Below the pieces are notes generated by a model that ran no database searches, was not told the DNA's origin, and saw only the letters and a program-made list of their open reading frames with translations. From a virus (taxonomy: Duplodnaviria; Heunggongvirae; Uroviricota; Caudoviricetes): 7,138 bases of DNA. Shown here one piece after another: positions 1 to 7,138 of the stretch. The stretch's first letter is position 1; each line of letters starts with the position of its first letter. Location of the stretch: the IMG/VR virus record IMGVR_UViG_2737471841_000002, positions 1 through 7,138 of that record; one strand, 5' to 3'. The translations under genes were made by a program, and so were the position numbers.

Positions 1-310
1 GGGCAGCTCCTGCCCCACCTGATTCTGGTTGGATTTGTTGTGCATTATCCAGCGTCAGATAAAAAACGTTTGACTGGTTAAGCTCTCCTTTTCTTCTGAA
101 TTCCCTTTTCAAAAGCCCCATCTCTTCCAGTGCCCTAATGTGACTTTTTACTGTCGATCTGCTCACCTCACACTGGTCAGCGACATGTTGATATGAAGGC
201 CAGCATTCGCCATTATCATTGGCGTTATCGGCAAGTTTAATCAGAACCAGTTTTCTCAGTGGGTTGCCAACCTTTATATTCATGGCCTTAGCCATAAGAT
301 TCATGCTCAT
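1..310 (-). CDS. Replication initiation protein (lambda O position), N-terminal 103 codons only; gene continues beyond the window start
   Basis: Minus-strand frame is open from ATG at 310 to the window edge (hand translation MSMNLMAKAMNIKVGNPLRKLVLIKLADNANDNGECWPSYQHVADQCEVSRSTVKSHIRALEEMGLLKREF...). The LADNANDNGECWPS...STV...AL..L pattern looks like the winged-HTH N-terminus of phage replication initiators. Start overlaps the upstream ORF stop (ATGA). It sits downstream of cII as O does in lambda. Absent from the ORF track because it is edge-truncated. Confidence 0.6.
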   Translation of the reverse strand, partial: MSMNLMAKAMNIKVGNPLRKLVLIKLADNANDNGECWPSYQHVADQCEVSRSTVKSHIRALEEMGLLKREFRRKGELNQSNVFYLTLDNAQQIQPESGGAGAA

Positions 311-450
311 TTTGACTTCTCCGAAGTTTTGTACCTGTTAAGTATTTCTCTCAGTGGCACAGCTATTGCTGGATTAACCCCCTGATAAAACTGGTCACGT
401 AGCACATCTTTTCGGTGATTAACGCGTTTATTTTCCTGCGTTTTTCGCAT
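307..450 (-). CDS. Hypothetical small basic protein (47 aa) between cII and the replication gene
   Basis: 3' part of track ORF 307..618; the upstream part overlaps cII out of frame. ATG at 450 is preceded by GAGGT with a 6-nt spacer; stop overlaps the next gene's start. No family recognised. Confidence 0.4.
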   Translation of the reverse strand: MRKTQENKRVNHRKDVLRDQFYQGVNPAIAVPLREILNRYKTSEKSK

Positions 451-455
451 ATAAT
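427..455 (+). promoter_or_regulatory. Candidate Po-like promoter for the oop-like RNA (perfect TATAAT at 450-455, weak -35 TTTATT near 427-432)
   Basis: TATAAT read directly on the + strand about 50 nt upstream of the oop-like terminator; the -35 is poor. Position matches lambda Po (between cII and O, opposite to cII). Confidence 0.4.
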
Positions 456-461
456 TACCTC

Positions 462-531
462 GTTGGATGTTATTAAAATTCCATTTGTATTTGATCAGAA
501 CGCTCGGTCTTGCACACCGGGCGTTTTTTAT
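462..531 (+). ncRNA. oop: oop-like antisense RNA overlapping the cII 3' end, ending at an intrinsic terminator (stem 501-508/516-523, T-run 524-529)
   Basis: + strand gatcagaacgctcggtcttgcacaccgggcgttttttattggtgag closely resembles the lambda oop terminator as recalled. Stem cgctcggt/accgggcg (one G-U pair), 7-nt loop, then TTTTTT. It lies antisense inside the last ~57 nt of cII. The 5' end is inferred from the promoter, not observed. Confidence 0.55.
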
Positions 532-772
532 TGGTGAGTCCATCAAGTGCATACTTAAAAGCCCTGCTAATCGGACTGATGTCTGATGCCATTCCGAAAG
601 CACACAAGACCGAAGCAATAAACCTCCAGTCCGTTCTGCTTATCTTCGATTCATGACAGCCAATCATCTTTGCCAGACCGCGCTGGGTAAGCGTTGACAG
701 GTTGATGAGTAAATCAGTTTCAGCGCGATCAACGTCGCGCTGTGATAGTTTGCTGTAACTTGTTTGTTCCAT
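473..772 (-). CDS. cII: CII-family transcriptional activator of lysogeny (99 aa)
   Basis: Track ORF 473..772. C-terminus LTNKKRPVCKTERSDQIQMEF matches the lambda CII tail (..TNKKRPAATERSEQIQMEF); an HTH-like segment TQRGLAKMIGCHESKISR is present; gene lies immediately downstream of cro. The N-terminal two thirds differ from lambda CII. Confidence 0.85.
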   Translation of the reverse strand: MEQTSYSKLSQRDVDRAETDLLINLSTLTQRGLAKMIGCHESKISRTDWRFIASVLCAFGMASDISPISRAFKYALDGLTNKKRPVCKTERSDQIQMEF

Positions 773-782
773 TTCTTACTAT
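750..782 (+). promoter_or_regulatory. Candidate PRE-like CII-activated promoter (TTGC-N6-TTGT at 750-763, possible -10 TACTAT at 777-782)
   Basis: A TTGCtgtaacTTGT repeat overlaps the first codons of cII on the opposite strand and points toward cI, as lambda PRE does. The second repeat is imperfect (TTGT). Confidence 0.3.
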
Positions 783-836
783 TTCCATAGGTAAATAATC
801 ACTAATACTCATCTTTCGATGAGTGCTTAATTAGTT

Positions 837-871
837 ACCGCGTTGTCGGCGGTGCAGATTGATAAAGAGCG
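837..871 (-). promoter_or_regulatory. nutR: boxA (863-871, reads CGCTCTTTA on - strand) and P22-type boxB hairpin (837-853, reads ACCGCCGACAACGCGGT)
   Basis: Immediately downstream of the cro stop in the PR transcript. boxB matches the P22 nutR boxB as recalled and is an interrupted palindrome ACCGC-CGACAAC-GCGGT. Confidence 0.8.
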
Positions 872-878
872 GTGTTAC

Positions 879-1079
879 TTATGCAGTTGTTTTTTTGTTG
901 CTTGGGAAGGGCTTTATTTCTTCCGCATAAACGCTTCCATCAGCGTTTATAGTTAAAAAAATATTTCGGCCTGCATGAATGGCCTTGTTGATCGCGCTTT
1001 GATATACGCCGAGATCTTTAGCCGTCTTGGTTTGACCAAAGCGCATTGCATAATCTTTCAGGGTTATGCGTTGTTCCAT
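879..1079 (-). CDS. cro: Cro repressor, lambda type (66 aa)
   Basis: Track ORF translation [66 protein letters not shown] is near-identical to lambda Cro as recalled (two conservative differences). Confidence 0.95.
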
Positions 1080-1103
1080 ACAACCTCCTTAGTACATGCA
1101 ATC

Positions 1104-1132
1104 ATTATCACCGCTAGAGGTAAAATAGTCAA
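1104..1132 (-). promoter_or_regulatory. PR promoter (-10 GATAAT = + 1104-1109; -35 TTGACT = + 1127-1132; 17-bp spacer), transcribing cro leftward
   Basis: Hexamers read directly; they overlap OR1 and OR2 exactly as in lambda. Confidence 0.85.
1106..1122. promoter_or_regulatory. Operator OR1 (tatcaccgctagaggta)
   Basis: 17-bp lambda-type operator; one substitution relative to lambda OR1 as recalled (TATCACCGCCAGAGGTA). Confidence 0.85.
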
Positions 1133-1146
1133 CACGCACGGTGTTA
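1130..1146. promoter_or_regulatory. Operator OR2 (caacacgcacggtgtta)
   Basis: Matches lambda OR2 as recalled. Confidence 0.85.
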
Positions 1147-1173
1147 GATATTTATCCCTTGCGGTGATAGATT
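1145..1173 (+). promoter_or_regulatory. PRM promoter (-35 TAGATA 1145-1150; -10 TAGATT 1168-1173), giving a near-leaderless cI transcript
   Basis: Lambda-type PRM hexamers with 17-bp spacing; the cI ATG is at 1180. Confidence 0.8.
1153..1169. promoter_or_regulatory. Operator OR3 (tatcccttgcggtgata)
   Basis: Matches lambda OR3 as recalled; overlaps the PRM -10. Confidence 0.85.
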
Positions 1174-1176
1174 TAA

Positions 1177-1893
<717 letters not shown>

Positions 1894-1924
1894 TTCAACG
1901 CAGCGAAAAAGGGTAATTCAATTA

Positions 1925-2797
1925 ATGGAACATGATGATTTACAGCAATTACCATCCCCATTCGCAAAATGGAAGGGGAAGATCGACTTAGGTGGTGAAA
2001 GTATTGATTGCTATGTGCTTGACACTGGACATCGTGTTATAGCTTTGCGAGCAACTGTAAAAGCAATTGCCAATGCGGAGTCAGGAGACCTGGCTAAATT
2101 TATTGGCGTTAGCTCACTTAATGGCTTTATAGACAAAGACTTAGTCCTGGCCGAACTCATAGAGTTTTCCATACCAGGAACCCAATTTAAGAGCCAAGGA
2201 CTTAAGACTGAGCAATTTGAATTGATTTGTCGCGGCTATGTACAGGCGCTATACAAAGGCGCGCCATTGACAGATAGACAGCGAGAAATAGCAATTAAAT
2301 GCGCTGTATTAACAGCGGGTTTAACTAGGACTGGGTTAGATGCTCTAATTGATGAGGCTACTGGGTATCAGTATGAGCGCGCAGAGGATGCTCTCCAAGT
2401 AAAACTCAGGGCGTTCATCGCTGAGGAACTAAGAGCATGGGAAAAAACATTTCCTGATGAGTTATGGGAAGAATTTGGTAGATTGACAGGATGGAGCACC
2501 CCATTGCAATCAAGGCCCAAATGGTGGGGGAAATTAGTTATAGAGTTAATTTATGACACTCTTGACGAAGATGTGGCTAAATATCTTAAAGAAAACAAGC
2601 CTGCGGCAGGAGTTCACTGGCATAGACAGTTAACCGAGAACCTAGGTGTAAGGCAGCTTGTATCAAGGTGCTGGGAGGTTATTGGGGTCGCAAAAACATG
2701 CGACACCATGCATGAGCTAAGAAGTCGAGTAGCTCAACACTATGGAAAGAAACCTGTTCAAATGACAATGTATTTACCGGAAAAAGAAATTAAATAA
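1925..2797 (+). CDS. Hypothetical protein (about 290 aa) at the rexA/rexB position; candidate lysogen-expressed exclusion or defence gene
   Basis: Track ORF 1829..2797; the first in-frame ATG after the cI stop is at 1925 (MEHDDLQQLP...). Same strand as cI and immediately downstream; followed by an intrinsic terminator. It does not resemble lambda RexA or RexB as recalled; no family recognised by eye. Confidence 0.7.
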   Translation: MEHDDLQQLPSPFAKWKGKIDLGGESIDCYVLDTGHRVIALRATVKAIANAESGDLAKFIGVSSLNGFIDKDLVLAELIEFSIPGTQFKSQGLKTEQFELICRGYVQALYKGAPLTDRQREIAIKCAVLTAGLTRTGLDALIDEATGYQYERAEDALQVKLRAFIAEELRAWEKTFPDELWEEFGRLTGWSTPLQSRPKWWGKLVIELIYDTLDEDVAKYLKENKPAAGVHWHRQLTENLGVRQLVSRCWEVIGVAKTCDTMHELRSRVAQHYGKKPVQMTMYLPEKEIK

Positions 2798-2804
2798 TAT
2801 ACAA

Positions 2805-2830
2805 CCCGGCCTCAGCGCCGGGTTTTCTTT
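2805..2830 (+). terminator. Intrinsic terminator closing the cI/rex-locus transcription unit
   Basis: cccggc-ctcagc-gccggg followed by ttttcttt, directly after the stop at 2797. Confidence 0.7.
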
Positions 2831-2985
2831 GCCTCACGATCGTCCACATAAAAAACATAATCAATTGTATTTATTGAAAAATAAATAGATACAACTCACT
2901 AAACATCGCAATTCTGATCTCTCGATCACACCACCACAGCAACACACCCCGGCAAAAAATAAATCTATATAAAAAACATACATAT

Positions 2986-3002
2986 AACAACCTGCGGTGA
3001 TA
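2986..3002. promoter_or_regulatory. Operator OL3 (aacaacctgcggtgata)
   Basis: Lambda-type operator; two differences from lambda OL3 as recalled. Confidence 0.75.
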
Positions 3003-3005
3003 AAT

Positions 3006-3022
3006 TATCTCTGGCGGTGTTG
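3006..3022. promoter_or_regulatory. Operator OL2 (tatctctggcggtgttg)
   Basis: Identical to lambda OL2 as recalled. Confidence 0.85.
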
Positions 3023-3048
3023 ACAAGCATACCACTAGCGGTGATACT
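3020..3048 (+). promoter_or_regulatory. PL promoter (-35 TTGACA 3020-3025; -10 GATACT 3043-3048; 17-bp spacer)
   Basis: Hexamers read directly and embedded in OL1/OL2; the surrounding sequence resembles the lambda PL region as recalled. Confidence 0.9.
3030..3046. promoter_or_regulatory. Operator OL1 (taccactagcggtgata)
   Basis: Lambda-type operator with one substitution relative to lambda OL1 as recalled (TACCACTGGCGGTGATA). Confidence 0.85.
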
Positions 3049-3093
3049 AAACACATCAGCAGGACGCTGGTAGCCAAACGGAACAGATTGGCA

Positions 3094-3128
3094 TGCTCTT
3101 TAACTTCGATGGGGCGCTGACAAAGCGC
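3094..3128 (+). promoter_or_regulatory. nutL: boxA (tgctctttaa, 3094-3103) and P22-type boxB hairpin (gcgctgacaaagcgc, 3114-3128)
   Basis: boxB is identical to the P22 nutL boxB as recalled (GCGCUGACAAAGCGC), a 5-bp stem with a GACAA loop, about 30 nt downstream of the PL start region. Confidence 0.85.
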
Positions 3129-3247
3129 AAACAGATACCAAACGAGATGGGTTTGGCGGTGATGTGAATTGCAGCTGCAACGACAGCAACCAGAAGATCA
3201 GCACCTGGCGCATCACCACCAAAGCCATTTCACATGAGGAAAATATC

Positions 3248-3556
3248 ATGACGGTAATCGTGTACGGAAAATCAACATTTGCAGGAAATGCCAAAACTCG
3301 CCGTCATGAGCGGCGCAGAAAGCTGGCTATCGAGCGTGATGCTATATGCAACATCATCGATTCGATCTTCGGCACAGACAGTGAGGAACCTGTTCAGGAA
3401 GCCCCGAGAAAGCGTTTAAGCATTTCTGAAAAAGCAATATCACTCGGCATCATTAGCAAATCAAATACAGATGCGAATAGCGGAAGCGTTTGTTTGCCTG
3501 AAGTTGCACTGTATGCTGCTGGTTACAGAAGGCAAAAACTAATTACAGCGAGGTAA
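3248..3556 (+). CDS. N: N-type transcription antiterminator, P22 gene 24 type (102 aa)
   Basis: Track ORF 3164..3556 with internal ATG at 3248 preceded by GAGGA; MTVIVYGKSTFAGNAKTRRHERRRKLAIERD... contains the P22 N arginine-rich motif (NAKTRRHERRRKLAIER) as recalled. It is first in the PL operon and paired with P22-type boxB sites. Confidence 0.9.
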   Translation: MTVIVYGKSTFAGNAKTRRHERRRKLAIERDAICNIIDSIFGTDSEEPVQEAPRKRLSISEKAISLGIISKSNTDANSGSVCLPEVALYAAGYRRQKLITAR

Positions 3557-3558
3557 AA

Positions 3559-3837
3559 ATGAAGCCTAGCATAACAATCAAGCCAGCGAGAGATAATAGC
3601 AGGAACCGCCGCAGAGAGGCCAGGAAGGCAGAAAGAGCAGAGAAGGAAAACAAGAGCCGGGAGGAGAGAAAGGCAGAGATTTTGGAAAAAGGAGGATTGG
3701 CTGCCGTGAGGGGTGAAAAAGCAGCTGAATTAGCAGTAGCTCACGAAAAGACAGAGATTGACAATAATTCTGGTGGAGATGCAATGTTTAAAGTTGTCAA
3801 TCACGCCCATCAACGAAACCCCAAAAAGAAATGGTAA
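3559..3837 (+). CDS. Hypothetical highly charged basic protein (92 aa) with an arginine-rich N-terminal segment
   Basis: Track ORF; ATG two nt after the N stop, with the GAGG Shine-Dalgarno inside the N 3' end (translational coupling). Composition RDNSRNRRREARKAERAEKENKSREERKAE. Confidence 0.55.
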   Translation: MKPSITIKPARDNSRNRRREARKAERAEKENKSREERKAEILEKGGLAAVRGEKAAELAVAHEKTEIDNNSGGDAMFKVVNHAHQRNPKKKW

Positions 3838-3840
3838 TCA

Positions 3841-3862
3841 ACCCGTCCAAGACGGGTTTTTT
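3841..3862 (+). terminator. Intrinsic terminator (tL1-like) after the 92-aa ORF
   Basis: acccgtccaagacgggtttttt: GC-rich stem then T6, three nt after the stop. Confidence 0.7.
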
Positions 3863-3894
3863 ATTGCAAGCAAACCACTTATTTGAGGTGAGAT

Positions 3895-4146
3895 ATGGAG
3901 TTTCATGAAAGTGCGATTTGTGATTTTCGCGCTAACGCAAATTCAGTAAAACCACAGCCAATTGCAGTTCTTTTTAAAACAATGGGTGCGTGGGCTGTTT
4001 TATGCTTCGCCGCTGATGACACTGACGCAAGAATGGCAATAGGCCAAGAGATGGAGATGGACCCGACAAACGATGAATTCATAATTTATGGCGCTCCATC
4101 TAATTACTTACTTGATACCTGCAACATTTACAACAAGGCTGCCTGA
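3895..4146 (+). CDS. Hypothetical protein (83 aa) with a hydrophobic central segment
   Basis: Track ORF; GAGGTG Shine-Dalgarno 5-10 nt upstream of the ATG. No family recognised. Confidence 0.5.
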   Translation: MEFHESAICDFRANANSVKPQPIAVLFKTMGAWAVLCFAADDTDARMAIGQEMEMDPTNDEFIIYGAPSNYLLDTCNIYNKAA

Positions 4147-4282
4147 TGGTGGCCTTTATTTTTGGCATAAACAACAGAATAAACACTGCACTGTGTATTC
4201 ATTCCAACGAGTGAATACACGGAGCAATGTCGCTCGTAACTAAACAGGAGCCGACTTGTTCTGATTATTGGAAATCTTCTTT

Positions 4283-4310
4283 GCCCTCCAGTGTGAGGGC
4301 AATTTTTTTT
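4283..4310 (+). terminator. Intrinsic terminator (tL2-like) directly upstream of the next gene's ribosome-binding site
   Basis: gccctc-cagtgt-gagggc followed by aatttttttt. Confidence 0.7.
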
Positions 4311-4322
4311 GATGGAGGATAT

Positions 4323-5291
4323 ATGAGTGAAGTAACAGATTTAGTTGTTATTGAAAAAGCAAATGCAATGACTGTATTTCAGTCTGCCGACCAGATTGAA
4401 GAAATCCTTCAAAAGGTTGAACGTGAAGTTATGTCCTTTGTGCCTGATATCACAACGGCAAAGGGCAGAAAGGAGATCGCTTCTCTGGCGTATAAAGTTG
4501 CGCAGACGAAAACATATCTCGATGGTCTTGGCAAAGACCTTGTTGCTGAACTGAAGGAAATTCCAAAGCTAATTGATGCCAACCGCAAGACAGTGCGTGA
4601 TCGACTTGATGAGCTGAAAGCCAAGGCACGCCAGCCTCTTACTGATTATGAGGATGAACAGGCACGGATTAAAGCCGAAGAAGAAGCTAAGGCAGCAGCT
4701 GAAGCTCTCGCAAAGCAAATTGAGTCTGACCATGAAATAGCGATTTTGATGGATCGCGAATTTGACCGCCAAAGAGAAGAGGCAAGACTCAAAGCGGAGC
4801 AGGAAAAGCGAGAGCATGAAGAACGCTTAAAAAGAGAAGCTGAAGAGAAAGCCAGAGCAGAAGCCGAAGCAAAGGCAAAAGCAGAAATTGAAGCAGCAGC
4901 AAGACGAGAAGCAGAGGCTAAGGCCGCAGCGGAACGTGCAGAGCGTGAACGCATTGAAGCCGAGCAACGAGCACAGCGCGAAGCAAAAGAGGCAGCAGAA
5001 CGAGCTGAAAAAGAAAAGCAGGCAGCAATTGAAGCAGAACGCAGAAAAGCACAGGAGGAGGCTGAACGAATCCGTCGCGAGGCTGAAGCAAAAGAGCAAG
5101 CCAGAATCGCAGAAGAAAAAAGAATCAAGGACGAAGAAGAGCACAGAGCAAAGGATAAAGCTCACCGGAAAGAAGTAAATAACAAAATACTTGCTGACCT
5201 TATCAAGGTTGGCGCATCAGAAGATGTTGCTAAAAATATCATAACAGCCATCGTAAAAGGCGAAGTATTCGCAACAAAAATAACCTACTAA
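4323..5291 (+). CDS. Hypothetical protein (322 aa): N-terminal domain, ~180-aa E/A/K/R-rich helical region, short C-terminal domain
   Basis: Track ORF 4227..5291; internal ATG at 4323 is preceded by GGAGG and lies downstream of the terminator at 4283-4310, so 4323 is the likely start. The central region is a degenerate charged repeat (EAEAKAKAEIEAAARREAEAKAAAERAERERIEAEQRAQREAKEAAERAEKEK). Confidence 0.7.
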   Translation: MSEVTDLVVIEKANAMTVFQSADQIEEILQKVEREVMSFVPDITTAKGRKEIASLAYKVAQTKTYLDGLGKDLVAELKEIPKLIDANRKTVRDRLDELKAKARQPLTDYEDEQARIKAEEEAKAAAEALAKQIESDHEIAILMDREFDRQREEARLKAEQEKREHEERLKREAEEKARAEAEAKAKAEIEAAARREAEAKAAAERAERERIEAEQRAQREAKEAAERAEKEKQAAIEAERRKAQEEAERIRREAEAKEQARIAEEKRIKDEEEHRAKDKAHRKEVNNKILADLIKVGASEDVAKNIITAIVKGEVFATKITY

Positions 5292-5315
5292 TAAAACCAA
5301 CATAAGGAACCACCC

Positions 5316-5462
5316 ATGATTTACGCAATCGCGGGAGGCGCTCGCATGGGTGCCTTCCAACTAAATGAATCTTTACTTGAACGAATCACCCGTAAATTAC
5401 GTGACGGATGGAAACGACTCATCGACGTACTTAATCAGCCAGGAGTTCCAAAAAATGGATAA
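5316..5462 (+). CDS. cIII: CIII-like protein (48 aa), the lambda FtsH inhibitor that stabilises CII
   Basis: Hand translation MIYAIAGGARMGAFQLNESLLERITRKLRDGWKRLIDVLNQPGVPKNG; its core matches lambda CIII as recalled (ESLLERITRKLRDGWKRLIDILNQPGVPKNG). AAGGA Shine-Dalgarno upstream. Below the ORF-track length cutoff. Confidence 0.7.
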   Translation: MIYAIAGGARMGAFQLNESLLERITRKLRDGWKRLIDVLNQPGVPKNG

Positions 5463-5568
5463 AACACTTATGGCTATTCAGACTAAATTCACTATCGCCA
5501 CTTTTATTGGCGATGAAAAGATGTTTCGTGAGGCCGTCGAAGCCTACAGAAAATGGAGGTCTAAATGA
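5455..5568 (+). CDS. kil: Kil-like host cell-division inhibitor (37 aa)
   Basis: Internal ATG of track ORF 5365..5568, preceded by AGGAG; MDKTLMAIQTKFTIATFIGDEKMFREAVEAYRKW resembles the lambda Kil N-terminus as recalled. Overlaps the cIII 3' end by 8 nt. Confidence 0.6.
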   Translation: MDKTLMAIQTKFTIATFIGDEKMFREAVEAYRKWRSK

Positions 5569-5753
5569 TTCCGGTAGAGCTGGCGAAAACTCCAGAGTTA
5601 AGTCGATTAAAAAGAGAATATCACATTGCTGAGGCTCGTTACTGGCGTAAAGCGGGAGATAAATCAAAGAAACAACTTTGTTTATGGCAAGCACAAAGAG
5701 AGCGCATGAATGAGCGCGAATTTCTTTCCTCCCCATCCGAATTACCATTCTGA
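5565..5753 (+). CDS. Hypothetical protein (62 aa) in the position lambda uses for gam
   Basis: Track ORF; start overlaps the kil stop (ATGA). No resemblance to lambda Gam as recalled. Confidence 0.45.
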   Translation: MIPVELAKTPELSRLKREYHIAEARYWRKAGDKSKKQLCLWQAQRERMNEREFLSSPSELPF

Positions 5754-5761
5754 GGTGAATT

Positions 5762-6469
5762 ATGGATTTGAATAAATTCGATGAGCCATTCAGCCCTGAA
5801 GATATCGAATGGCGAATACAGCAAAGCGGTAAAACACGCGATGGAAAAGTGTGGGCTATGGTGCTGGCTTATGTCACGAACAGGGCAATCATGAAACGCC
5901 TGGACGATGTTTGCGGCAAAGCAGGATGGCGCAATGAATACCGCGATATTCCCAACAACGGAGGCGTTGAATGCGGCATATCAATCAGGATTGATTCCGA
6001 ATGGGTAACCAAATGGGATGCTGCTGAAAACACGCAGGTAGAAGCCGTCAAAGGTGGTCGTTCAGGTGCAATGAAGCGTGCTGCCGTTCAGTGGGGAATC
6101 GGTCGGTATCTGTATAACCTTGAGGAAGGTTTCGCACAAACATCTCTCGATAAAAAGCAGGGGTGGCACAGGGCAAAACTGAAGGATGGAACAGGATTTT
6201 ACTGGCTCCCTCCATCGCTGCCGGGATGGGCAATCCCAGCATCAGATAACAAACCATCACCAGAAAATACCAACCAGAAATCTCCATCGGTTGACTGCGA
6301 ACAAATCCTGAAAGACTTCAGCGATTATGCGTCAACAGAAACTGACAAGAAAAAACTCATCGAGCGTTATCAGCGTGACTGGCAATTAATGGCTGGCAAC
6401 GAGGAGGCGCAGGCTAAATGCGTTCAGGTAATGAACATCAGAGTTAACGAACTAAAACAGGCGGCATAA
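5762..6469 (+). CDS. Rad52-like single-strand annealing protein (phage recombinase, 235 aa)
   Basis: Track ORF; GAGGTG Shine-Dalgarno. The segment EAVKGGRSGAMKRAAVQWGIGRYLY parallels the conserved Rad52 motif (EAVTDGLKRALRSFGNALG); gene is immediately followed by ssb. Confidence 0.75.
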   Translation: MDLNKFDEPFSPEDIEWRIQQSGKTRDGKVWAMVLAYVTNRAIMKRLDDVCGKAGWRNEYRDIPNNGGVECGISIRIDSEWVTKWDAAENTQVEAVKGGRSGAMKRAAVQWGIGRYLYNLEEGFAQTSLDKKQGWHRAKLKDGTGFYWLPPSLPGWAIPASDNKPSPENTNQKSPSVDCEQILKDFSDYASTETDKKKLIERYQRDWQLMAGNEEAQAKCVQVMNIRVNELKQAA

Positions 6470-6943
6470 ATGGCAAGCAGAGGCGTAAATAAGGTGATCA
6501 TTATTGGTCGCCTTGGGCATGATCCAGAAATCAGATATTCACCATCAGGAACGGCATTTGCAAACCTTACCGTTGCTACGTCAGAACAATGGCGTGATAA
6601 GAAAACTGGAGAGCAAAAGGAGCAGACGGAGTGGCACCGCGTGGTAATGAGCGGGAAACTGGCAGAAATTGCCAGCGAATATCTGCGAAAAGGCTCTGAT
6701 GTTTATCTTGAAGGCAAATTGCGGACAAGAAAATGGCAGGATCAAAGTGGACAGGATCGGTTCACTACCGAAGTCATCGTGGGCGTTGGTGGAACCATGC
6801 AAATGCTTGGTGGCAAGCAAGGAGGCAATGAACAGTCTTCACCTCAGCGAAATAACGGTCATCAACAAAGACAGCAACCTCAGCAGCATGGAAATCACAG
6901 CGAACCACCTATGAACTTCGACGATTCGGATATTCCGTTCTAG
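6470..6943 (+). CDS. ssb: Single-stranded DNA-binding protein (157 aa)
   Basis: Track ORF resembles E. coli SSB along its OB-fold region ([16 protein letters not shown]...TEWHRVV...[11 protein letters not shown]) as recalled, with a Gly/Gln-rich linker and acidic tail ending DDSDIPF. Start ATG abuts the upstream stop (TAAATG). Confidence 0.95.
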
Positions 6944-6952
6944 GAGCTGAAT

Positions 6953-7138
6953 ATGAAAATCTGCTCAAGATGCCATCAACAGAAGGAAGAAAGGGACTTT
7001 CAAATCAGAAGAGCATCCAGAGATGGATTAACTGCCGCTTGCCGGGCTTGCCTGGCTGAATATGACAAAGAGCGCGCGGGATTGCCACATCGAGTATCAG
7101 CAAGGAGAGAATATCAATCATCGGAACGCGGCAGAGAA
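6953..7138 (+). CDS. Hypothetical Cys-rich protein, N-terminal 62 codons only; runs off the window end
   Basis: ATG at 6953 preceded by AGGAG with a 6-nt spacer; hand translation MKICSRCHQQKEERDFQIRRASRDGLTAACRACLAEYDKERAGL... has two CxxC-like pairs (C4, C7, C30, C33). Confidence 0.45.
   Translation, partial: MKICSRCHQQKEERDFQIRRASRDGLTAACRACLAEYDKERAGLPHRVSARREYQSSERGRE

Follow-up and report, generated by a model that had tools for sequence, protein, structure and literature searches.

The ORF at 4323-5291 and the architecture of its product

We analysed a 7138 bp stretch of DNA (positions 1 to 7138 of the IMG/VR virus record IMGVR_UViG_2737471841_000002; hereafter the window), which covers the immunity region and the early-left (pL) region of a temperate phage or prophage of lambdoid, Sf6/HK620-like type. 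The analysis centred on a plus-strand open reading frame (ORF) of 322 amino acids (aa), termed the target gene, which lies between the antitermination gene N and genes for cIII, Kil, an Erf-like single-strand annealing protein (SSAP) and SSB (Table 1). A first reading of the sequence by a model (the original prediction) had singled it out for a long helical region of glutamate, alanine, lysine and arginine (E/A/K/R). The ORF is real, and both frame and start proved sound. A Shine-Dalgarno sequence precedes the ATG, the annotated start of Sf6 gene 33 is the equivalent of 4323, all homologs open with MSEVTDL and both end domains are conserved in this frame, upholding the reading frame initially assumed. 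The five spurious overlapping ORFs that had been put down to codon repetition were likewise confirmed to be present (4569-4817, 4646-5128, 4827-5165 and 4918-5091 on the minus strand, and 4888-5178 on the plus strand). A longer ORF from an upstream ATG at 4227 was ruled out, because the extension would contain the terminator at 4281-4302 and homologs start at the equivalent of 4323, with none supporting the longer form. Separately, P0003 and other proteins from Logan assemblies switch at around residue 170 into the K/Q/R-rich frame of the spurious +1 ORF (4888-5178), which probably reflects assembly frameshifts in a repetitive region and not biology.

Placement of the gene in a delayed-early operon was consistent with the features upstream of it. 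The pL-like promoter was found between the cI-side genes and N, matching the Sf6 annotation, and N is followed by three intrinsic terminators within ~460 bp ahead of the target gene, indicating tight N-dependence of all downstream genes. The site homologous to the third of these is labelled in Sf6 as 'terminator; homology to phage lambda; tL2A', and its position immediately upstream of the target gene suggests that expression should need N antitermination. Terminator-like sites numbered 11 in the scanned region, against 3.8 expected.

Residues 115-300 of the protein, described at the outset as a ~180-residue region of E/A/K/R only, were confirmed to consist of these four residues to 76 %, but the extreme stretch proved narrower. 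It spans residues 148-282, where the E/A/K/R fraction is 0.75-1.0 per 20-aa window and 61 % of residues are charged, whereas it is only 0.35 in residues 131-150, which hold an amphipathic, conserved motif (IESDHEIAILMDREFDR) and not low-complexity sequence. The degenerate short repeats noted in the protein were borne out at DNA level: Tandem Repeats Finder (TRF) reported periods of 6, 12 and 24 nt at 4830-4886, and dispersed repeats of 34-37 nt were present, every spacing between them being a multiple of three. The flanking domains, first described as small and globular-looking, are real and family-conserved, with an N-domain at approximately aa 1-118 and a C-domain at approximately aa 283-322. 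Invariant or near-invariant positions in alignments of the N-domain were T45, G48, R49, G70, K71, K78, D85, R88, R103, P105 and E110. The C-domain follows the family consensus H(R/K)..(I/V)N..A...L...G..E.AK....AIA.G.I....I.Y, ending in Y. Between the N-domain and the spacer lies a linker whose motif is duplicated or deleted among relatives, and which has a hydrophobic occupancy of 0.5 at heptad positions a and d.

AlphaFold2 modelling with a 47-sequence alignment gave a mean predicted local distance difference test (pLDDT) score of 84, with short helices at residues 12-37 and an uninterrupted helix from 46 to 295; the same long helix was returned in a run with a shallower alignment. The N-domain scored 80-89 with the deep alignment and the C-terminal mini-domain 90-97. 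Comparison of residues 148-282 with 2000 shuffles showed an excess of oppositely charged pairs at i/i+4 (z=+4.4 for E to K/R and z=+6.7 for K/R to E), whilst like charges are depleted at i+4 (z=-5.3) and recur at i+8 (z=+4.8). Hydrophobic occupancy of heptad a/d positions over residues 148-280 was just 0.12-0.25 (one to two of eight), and 40-60 % of a/d positions were charged. This combination of an i/i+4 charge pattern and no hydrophobic heptad core indicates an ER/K-type single alpha-helix and not a canonical coiled coil. Of the two structures originally suggested for the spacer, the long single helix thus gained the backing of modelling, charge statistics and heptad analysis, and the coiled coil did not. 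We regard the helical-spacer architecture as highly probable; assignment of the spacer to the ER/K type is a prediction made on the monomer. If straight, the spacer would measure ~20 nm, and it contains degenerate repeats of 2, 4 and 8 codons. It shares with domain II of Escherichia coli TolA and with the ER/K single alpha-helix spacers of myosin VI/X and caldesmon the character of a long, charged helix rich in Ala, Glu, Lys and Arg. Alanine accounts for 27 % of it, a higher content than in classical ER/K motifs. The highest 19-aa Kyte-Doolittle mean was 1.03, at residues 293-311 and not N-terminal, and the overall isoelectric point was 5.5; with no hydrophobic segment, the protein should be cytoplasmic.

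The Sf6 gene 33 and phi80 Agt family

The target gene is an already known and widespread phage ORF and is not novel as a sequence. DNA identity of 97.7-98.4 % over the whole ORF was found with Sf6 gene 33 and with copies in IME10, HF4s, CUS-3, HK544, mEp043, mEp213, mEp234, Sf101 and many Shiga toxin (Stx1/Stx2) phages; for Sf6, HF4s, IME10 and others it was 98.2-98.4 %. Of 5426 complete E. coli genomes, 530 (~10 %) also carry the gene, one of them in a 100 % identical copy. The Sf6 gene 33 protein (NP_958209) and IME10 Orf53 are products of essentially the same gene, with the same terminator upstream and the same cIII-kil arrangement downstream, whereas the immunity region and pL-proximal genes of Sf6-type phages differ from the window through mosaicism. 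The longest continuous coverage of the whole window by a single phage record is only 44 %, as is typical of lambdoid mosaicism. At protein level the target matched PHROG 1376 over residues 1-322 (4.9e-109) and aligned by BLASTP with phi80 Agt over residues 1-322 of both proteins, each of 322 aa, at 50 % identity (E 1e-63). That the target is a near-exact copy of Sf6 gene 33, belonging to an Sf6 gp33/phi80 Agt family, can be considered virtually settled; the original prediction had not recognised either relationship.

The family is large, with at least 5469 clusters at 50 % identity. This is the number of cluster representatives matched by an N-domain profile at E<=1e-3; at E<=1e-10 there were 4527. 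Lengths of 280-430 aa predominate. The spacer in family members ranges from 141 to 210 aa (median 181), with a median E/A/K/R/Q content of 72 % and ~1 % Pro+Gly. Close relatives display in-frame deletions and duplications in the spacer giving total lengths of 197, 221, 245, 262 and 322 aa, suggesting that exact length is not critical. Natural length variants were examined in P0019, P0113, P0064 and P0094. The common 245-aa E. coli form lacks exactly residues 121-197 through an in-frame deletion between two EAKAAAE repeats, whilst forms of 197-262 aa in Klebsiella and E. coli have lost or duplicated the A(L/M)xMNxxFDR motif. Spacer-length change appears to be driven by the repeats. A separate rearrangement was seen in P0093, a hybrid 111-aa protein of an E. 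coli prophage that combines residues 1-80 of the target N-domain with C-terminal residues of Abc2 (RPFRKATYTHFPE..DPRLRNYRSRYGAISND, Pfam DUF2856); this looks like a defective-prophage deletion running from gene 33 to abc2 and removing kil, erf and ssb.

Three PHROG families (1376, 17211 and 21365) cover these proteins, all of whose members are annotated as function unknown. No Pfam match was obtained for the target (E<=0.1) or for 47 diverse relatives, leaving the family without a Pfam model, and NCBIfam and PADLOC scans of the target gave no meaningful match. Searches made separately with the two end domains recovered the family through the N-domain, and the C-domain yielded only a weak resemblance, below significance, to RuvA domain III/UBA folds (profile E 0.13-1.8; Foldseek probability 0.2-0.28). 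Profile searches of PDB sequences with N-domain, full-length and C-domain profiles returned nothing significant, and comparison with solved and predicted structures gave no informative match. KfrA-type plasmid proteins were considered as relatives and rejected, as neither the target nor its relatives matched PF11740 (KfrA_N); the long helical tail of those proteins is only analogous.

One homolog, phi80 Agt, has been characterised genetically. In the GenBank record of phi80 (Lula), agt (YP_007947961) is described as 'anti-toxin for Gam; Mog (modifier of Gam)' and the adjacent gamL as 'gam-like host nuclease inhibitor; toxic without Mog', with rec and exo next in order. HF4s annotates its own copy of the target gene as 'similar to phage phi80 Agt; Gam antitoxin'. 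The phi80 gamL product is said to inhibit both RecBCD and SbcCD, and agt reportedly provides the antidote. Agt has the same three-part architecture as the target, and its gene likewise belongs to the pL operon and directly precedes the recombination module, but its N-domain is only ~41 % identical to that of the target. The modules also differ: phi80 carries gamL and then a recT-type rec and exo, whereas the window instead carries cIII, kil, a small ORF, an Erf/Rad52-type SSAP and SSB, and no GamL homolog was found in the window in the ORF list or by Pfam or PHROG. GamL is stated to block RecBCD in a survey of lambdoid Rec modules that cites Rotman 2012 (PMC12315714, Genome Research 2025); the target gene is not discussed in that survey. 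The literature on agt, gamL and Sf6 gene 33 yielded no further functional data. A more distant member, Orf53 of Pseudomonas phage D3, has an N-domain 55 % identical to that of the target and the same C-terminal motif, and is encoded directly upstream of Erf and an exonuclease, but its spacer, as in the wider family, is unlike that of the target in sequence and length.

Genomic context and possible function

A census of gene neighbourhoods was made on 63 loci from GTDB contigs, one genome per species, as a scan of viral contigs had given almost only near-identical copies. The loci were from Gamma-, Beta- and Alphaproteobacteria and a few other metagenome-assembled genomes. ORFs were called mechanically and neighbours of at least 100 aa were scanned against Pfam, which provided 57 diverse prophage loci for the downstream side and 56 for the upstream side. 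The first downstream ORF was recombination-related in ~42 of 57 loci (ERF 21, RecT 4, Rad52 3, AAA_24/Sak4 3, nuclease 9, Gam 1, SSB 1), compared with ~8 of 56 for the first upstream ORF, which served as control. Amongst second downstream ORFs, SSB (14 of 57), YqaJ (9), RecT (3) and DUF3799 (3) were found, along with NinB, YbcO, PDDEXK and AAA_24. GamL homologs were present in two of ~60 family loci and Abc2 also in two. Individual phages followed the same pattern, with the orders orf53, Erf, YqaJ exonuclease in Pseudomonas D3; gp10, Erf, exonuclease, NinB in Sinorhizobium phiLM21; and family gene, GamL, Bet, exonuclease in Klebsiella ST15-VIM1phi2.1. In Vibrio phiV208 the family gene adjoins an exonuclease. 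These results indicate that the gene is characteristically promoter-proximal in a recombination module, whatever the family of the annealing protein. Furthermore, in lambdoid phages a single allele (at least 97.8 % DNA identity) precedes three different modules: Erf/SSB/Abc2 in Sf6, a lambda-type Gam-Bet-Exo in phiSTEC801-Stx1a, and another recombinase with Abc2 in mEp043 and HF4s.

We favour, with moderate confidence, the reading that the target gene encodes a promoter-proximal accessory of the phage recombination and anti-nuclease module, directed at a host or DNA target. Functional membership in the recombination module is likely; a specific nuclease-modulating mechanism is advanced tentatively. 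The gene would be transcribed from pL only after N-mediated antitermination. The protein would be a soluble cytoplasmic rod, with a conserved helical N-domain of ~110 aa at one end, a conserved C-terminal mini-domain of ~40 aa at the other and a long stiff helix as the separator, for the most part a charged ER/K-type single alpha-helix whose length would be free to vary. Its end domains would bind a host or DNA-end target and not one particular phage recombinase, as suggested by the occurrence of the same allele ahead of three different modules. The phi80 annotation makes the RecBCD/SbcCD axis, or phage inhibitors of it, the most plausible target. Binding may tune the way in which host RecBCD and SbcCD process double-strand ends, or else the phage's own inhibitors of these nucleases, such that phage DNA ends would be channelled to SSAP-driven recombination and the toxicity of a complete nuclease blockade avoided. 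Such an action agrees with the phi80 annotation of agt as an antidote to, or modifier of, a GamL that would otherwise be toxic.

Several observations weigh against this reading. The role of phi80 Agt is known here from a GenBank annotation, and the rarity of GamL amongst the family loci means that a GamL-antidote role cannot be the general function of the family. In the window, cIII, kil and a small ORF stand between the target gene and erf, and in lambdoid phages the target gene moves as a mosaic unit with cIII and kil. Finally, gene adjacency is correlative and the ORF calling in the census was crude.

A broader proposal, which we consider doubtful, is that the Agt/gp33 family constitutes an unrecognised fourth component of the annealing modules of Proteobacteria phages, irrespective of whether these are built on Erf, RecT, Rad52 or Sak4. 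Its members, unlike Gam and Abc2, might capture RecBCD, SbcCD or a DNA end with domains held 20-35 nm apart. For Firmicutes phages, a published study (PMC8093625) places Mu Gam, DUF2483, DUF1351 or Gp157 in the corresponding position ahead of erf-ssb or sak4 and suggests that their functions are analogous. The target family occupies the same recombination-module slot as DUF1351, Sipho_Gp157, DUF2483 and Mu Gam, and would be their counterpart. DUF1351 (PF07083) also has a helical region at its start, and the motif register in an hhalign comparison with the family was plausible, but the comparison gave a non-significant P=0.08 and a probability of 0.7 %, with a verified DUF1351 alignment representing one Enterococcus-phage subfamily. 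No Pfam match to PF07083 was seen for the target or 46 relatives, and DUF1351 proteins lack the long E/A/K/R spacer and differ in their C-terminal half.

Whilst the single gene is ordinary, the family is of interest for its very large size, the lack of a Pfam model and the wrong labels that its composition routinely attracts. Its conserved first place in recombination modules whose annealing proteins belong to four unrelated families points to a missing accessory function of phage recombination or host-nuclease control, with a bearing on recombineering toolkits, the origin of phage genetic mosaics and the toxicity of RecBCD inhibitors.

Alternatively, the protein could serve the machinery of recombination or replication as a passive tether or scaffold and exert no nuclease control, with one end on DNA or a replisome component, the other on a generic partner such as SSB, and the helix acting as spacer or molecular ruler. 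A rod with two conserved ends would suit this role, SSB is the commonest second downstream gene, and the RuvA-domain-III/UBA-like signals of the C-domain, weak as they are, emerged from two independent searches. On the other hand, those signals were non-significant, spacers of ~50 to 210 aa that vary even among close relatives speak against a precise ruler, and the only genetic clue, that from phi80, points to modulation of Gam. We consider a tether unlikely. Slightly less credible is an accessory gene for another host process, for example anti-defence or a function alongside Kil and cIII, whose adjacency to recombination genes would reflect operon mosaicism. The shared unit with cIII and kil in lambdoid phages, a mosaic boundary sequence just upstream, the lack of the gene in lambda and the ~15 of 57 first downstream neighbours with no recombination domain are all in keeping with this idea. 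Against it, adjacency to SSAPs of four unrelated families extends across Gamma-, Beta- and Alphaproteobacteria in the absence of cIII and kil, the linkage in the census is directional, and the PADLOC scan gave no match.

A TolA-like envelope, superinfection-exclusion or envelope-perturbing protein is very improbable. The original prediction had likened the central helix to that of TolA, as a loose impression, and had proposed a test of the effect of expression on superinfection and host envelope integrity. Many database records name the protein 'cell envelope biogenesis protein TolA', 'TolA' or 'colicin import membrane protein', and other labels include tail fibre and fibrinogen-binding protein. 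The likeness in composition to TolA domain II stands; beyond it the comparison fails. BLASTP against E. coli TolA gave E=0.28 over 58 low-complexity residues only; PF06519, which matches the C-terminal domain of E. coli TolA at 2e-38, did not match the target, nor did any NCBIfam TolA model. There is no N-terminal transmembrane anchor or signal sequence (maximum Kyte-Doolittle mean as above), and the gene is situated in a phage pL operon and not in a tolQ-tolR-tolA-tolB or tol-pal cluster. Failure in alignment, domain, anchor and context indicates that the TolA-type names are compositional artefacts, whose correction is a practical gain. The suggested envelope or superinfection role found no support, the context pointing to recombination and host-nuclease control. 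The probability that the ORF is itself an artefact, either a wrong frame or non-functional low-complexity sequence, is negligible: five other ORFs overlap the region and some assemblies, such as that encoding P0003, hold frameshifted versions, but this idea is refuted by conservation of the end domains in this frame across thousands of clusters, by repeat spacings and length variants that are all multiples of three, and by a strong Shine-Dalgarno sequence and start codon.

Other features of the window

Coordinates of all features are collected in Table 1.

Table 1. Features of the 7138 bp window, in order of position, with the protein regions of the target gene given as nucleotide intervals
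Feature	Position	Strand	Basis or remark
Cro-like ORF	879-1079	-	
cI	1180-1893	+	
P63C-domain ORF, 322 aa	1829-2797	+	Pfam 2.7e-22; PHROG 2384, function unknown
pL-like sigma-70 promoter	3020-3048	+	TTGACA, 17 nt spacer, GATACT; promoter scan, 10/12 matches
N antiterminator	3164-3556	+	GTG start at 3164; Pfam N_peptide 3.9e-38, match aa 29-130
Nun-like ORF, 92 aa, Arg-rich	3559-3837	+	PHROG 5632 'Nun-like transcription termination factor', 1.5e-29
Intrinsic terminator 1	3840-3858	+	Terminator scan: 8-bp stem, then T run
83-aa ORF	3895-4146	+	
Intrinsic terminator 2	4135-4156	+	Terminator scan: 9-bp stem
Intrinsic terminator 3, tL2A-like, just 5' of target gene	4281-4302	+	Terminator scan
Shine-Dalgarno sequence GGAGGA	4314-4319	+	Direct reading of sequence
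Target coding sequence, Sf6 gene 33/phi80 Agt family, 322 aa + stop	4323-5291	+	ATG 4323, stop 5289-5291
N-terminal domain, conserved, amphipathic helices, aa 1-110 (up to ~118)	4323-4652	+	Family alignments; AlphaFold2
Amphipathic linker, aa 111-147	4653-4763	+	Conserved IESDHE(I/M)A(I/L)LM..FDR motif (alignment)
Predicted E/A/K/R single-alpha-helix spacer, aa 148-282	4764-5168	+	Composition, i/i+4 charge statistics, AlphaFold2
C-terminal mini-domain, conserved, aa 283-322	5169-5288	+	Family C-termini; pLDDT 90-97
cIII-like ORF, directly 3' of target gene	5316-5462	+	ORF list; homologous Sf6 position annotated cIII
Kil, cell-division inhibitor	5365-5568	+	Pfam Lambda_Kil, 4e-21
62-aa ORF, HK97 gp42-like	5565-5753	+	PHROG 1723 (label 'recombinase'), 1.6e-33; Sf6 annotation
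SSAP, Erf-like, Rad52 fold	5762-6469	+	Pfam Rad52_Rad22 7.2e-26; PHROG 1097 Erf-like 6.5e-130
Phage SSB	6470-6943	+	ORF list; Sf6 annotation; identical L088 ORF matches Pfam SSB 1.7e-38

The P63C-domain ORF is located between cI and pL, the slot of rexAB in lambda. In its listed extent it shares 65 nt with the end of cI, and a bidirectional terminator follows at 2803-2824. It gave no PADLOC match and is a candidate lysogen-expressed accessory or exclusion gene. The Nun-like ORF begins right after N and contains an arginine-rich motif (NSRNRRREARKAERAE); a tandem arrangement of an N antiterminator and a Nun-like gene in one phage is unusual. Downstream of the target gene, the cIII-like ORF and the listed kil ORF overlap by ~100 nt in different frames, and the Pfam Kil match covers only aa 32-62. 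The actual kil start is probably further downstream than listed; this is the case in Sf6, in which the two genes share 16 nt.

A 99 %-identical copy of the target gene was also found at 59-1024 of a 3.9-kb contig (L088; JAFADF010000066.1) from a metagenome-assembled genome named 'Actinomycetes bacterium', followed by kil, Rad52/Erf and SSB as in the window. This is almost certainly a mis-binned enterobacterial phage contig.

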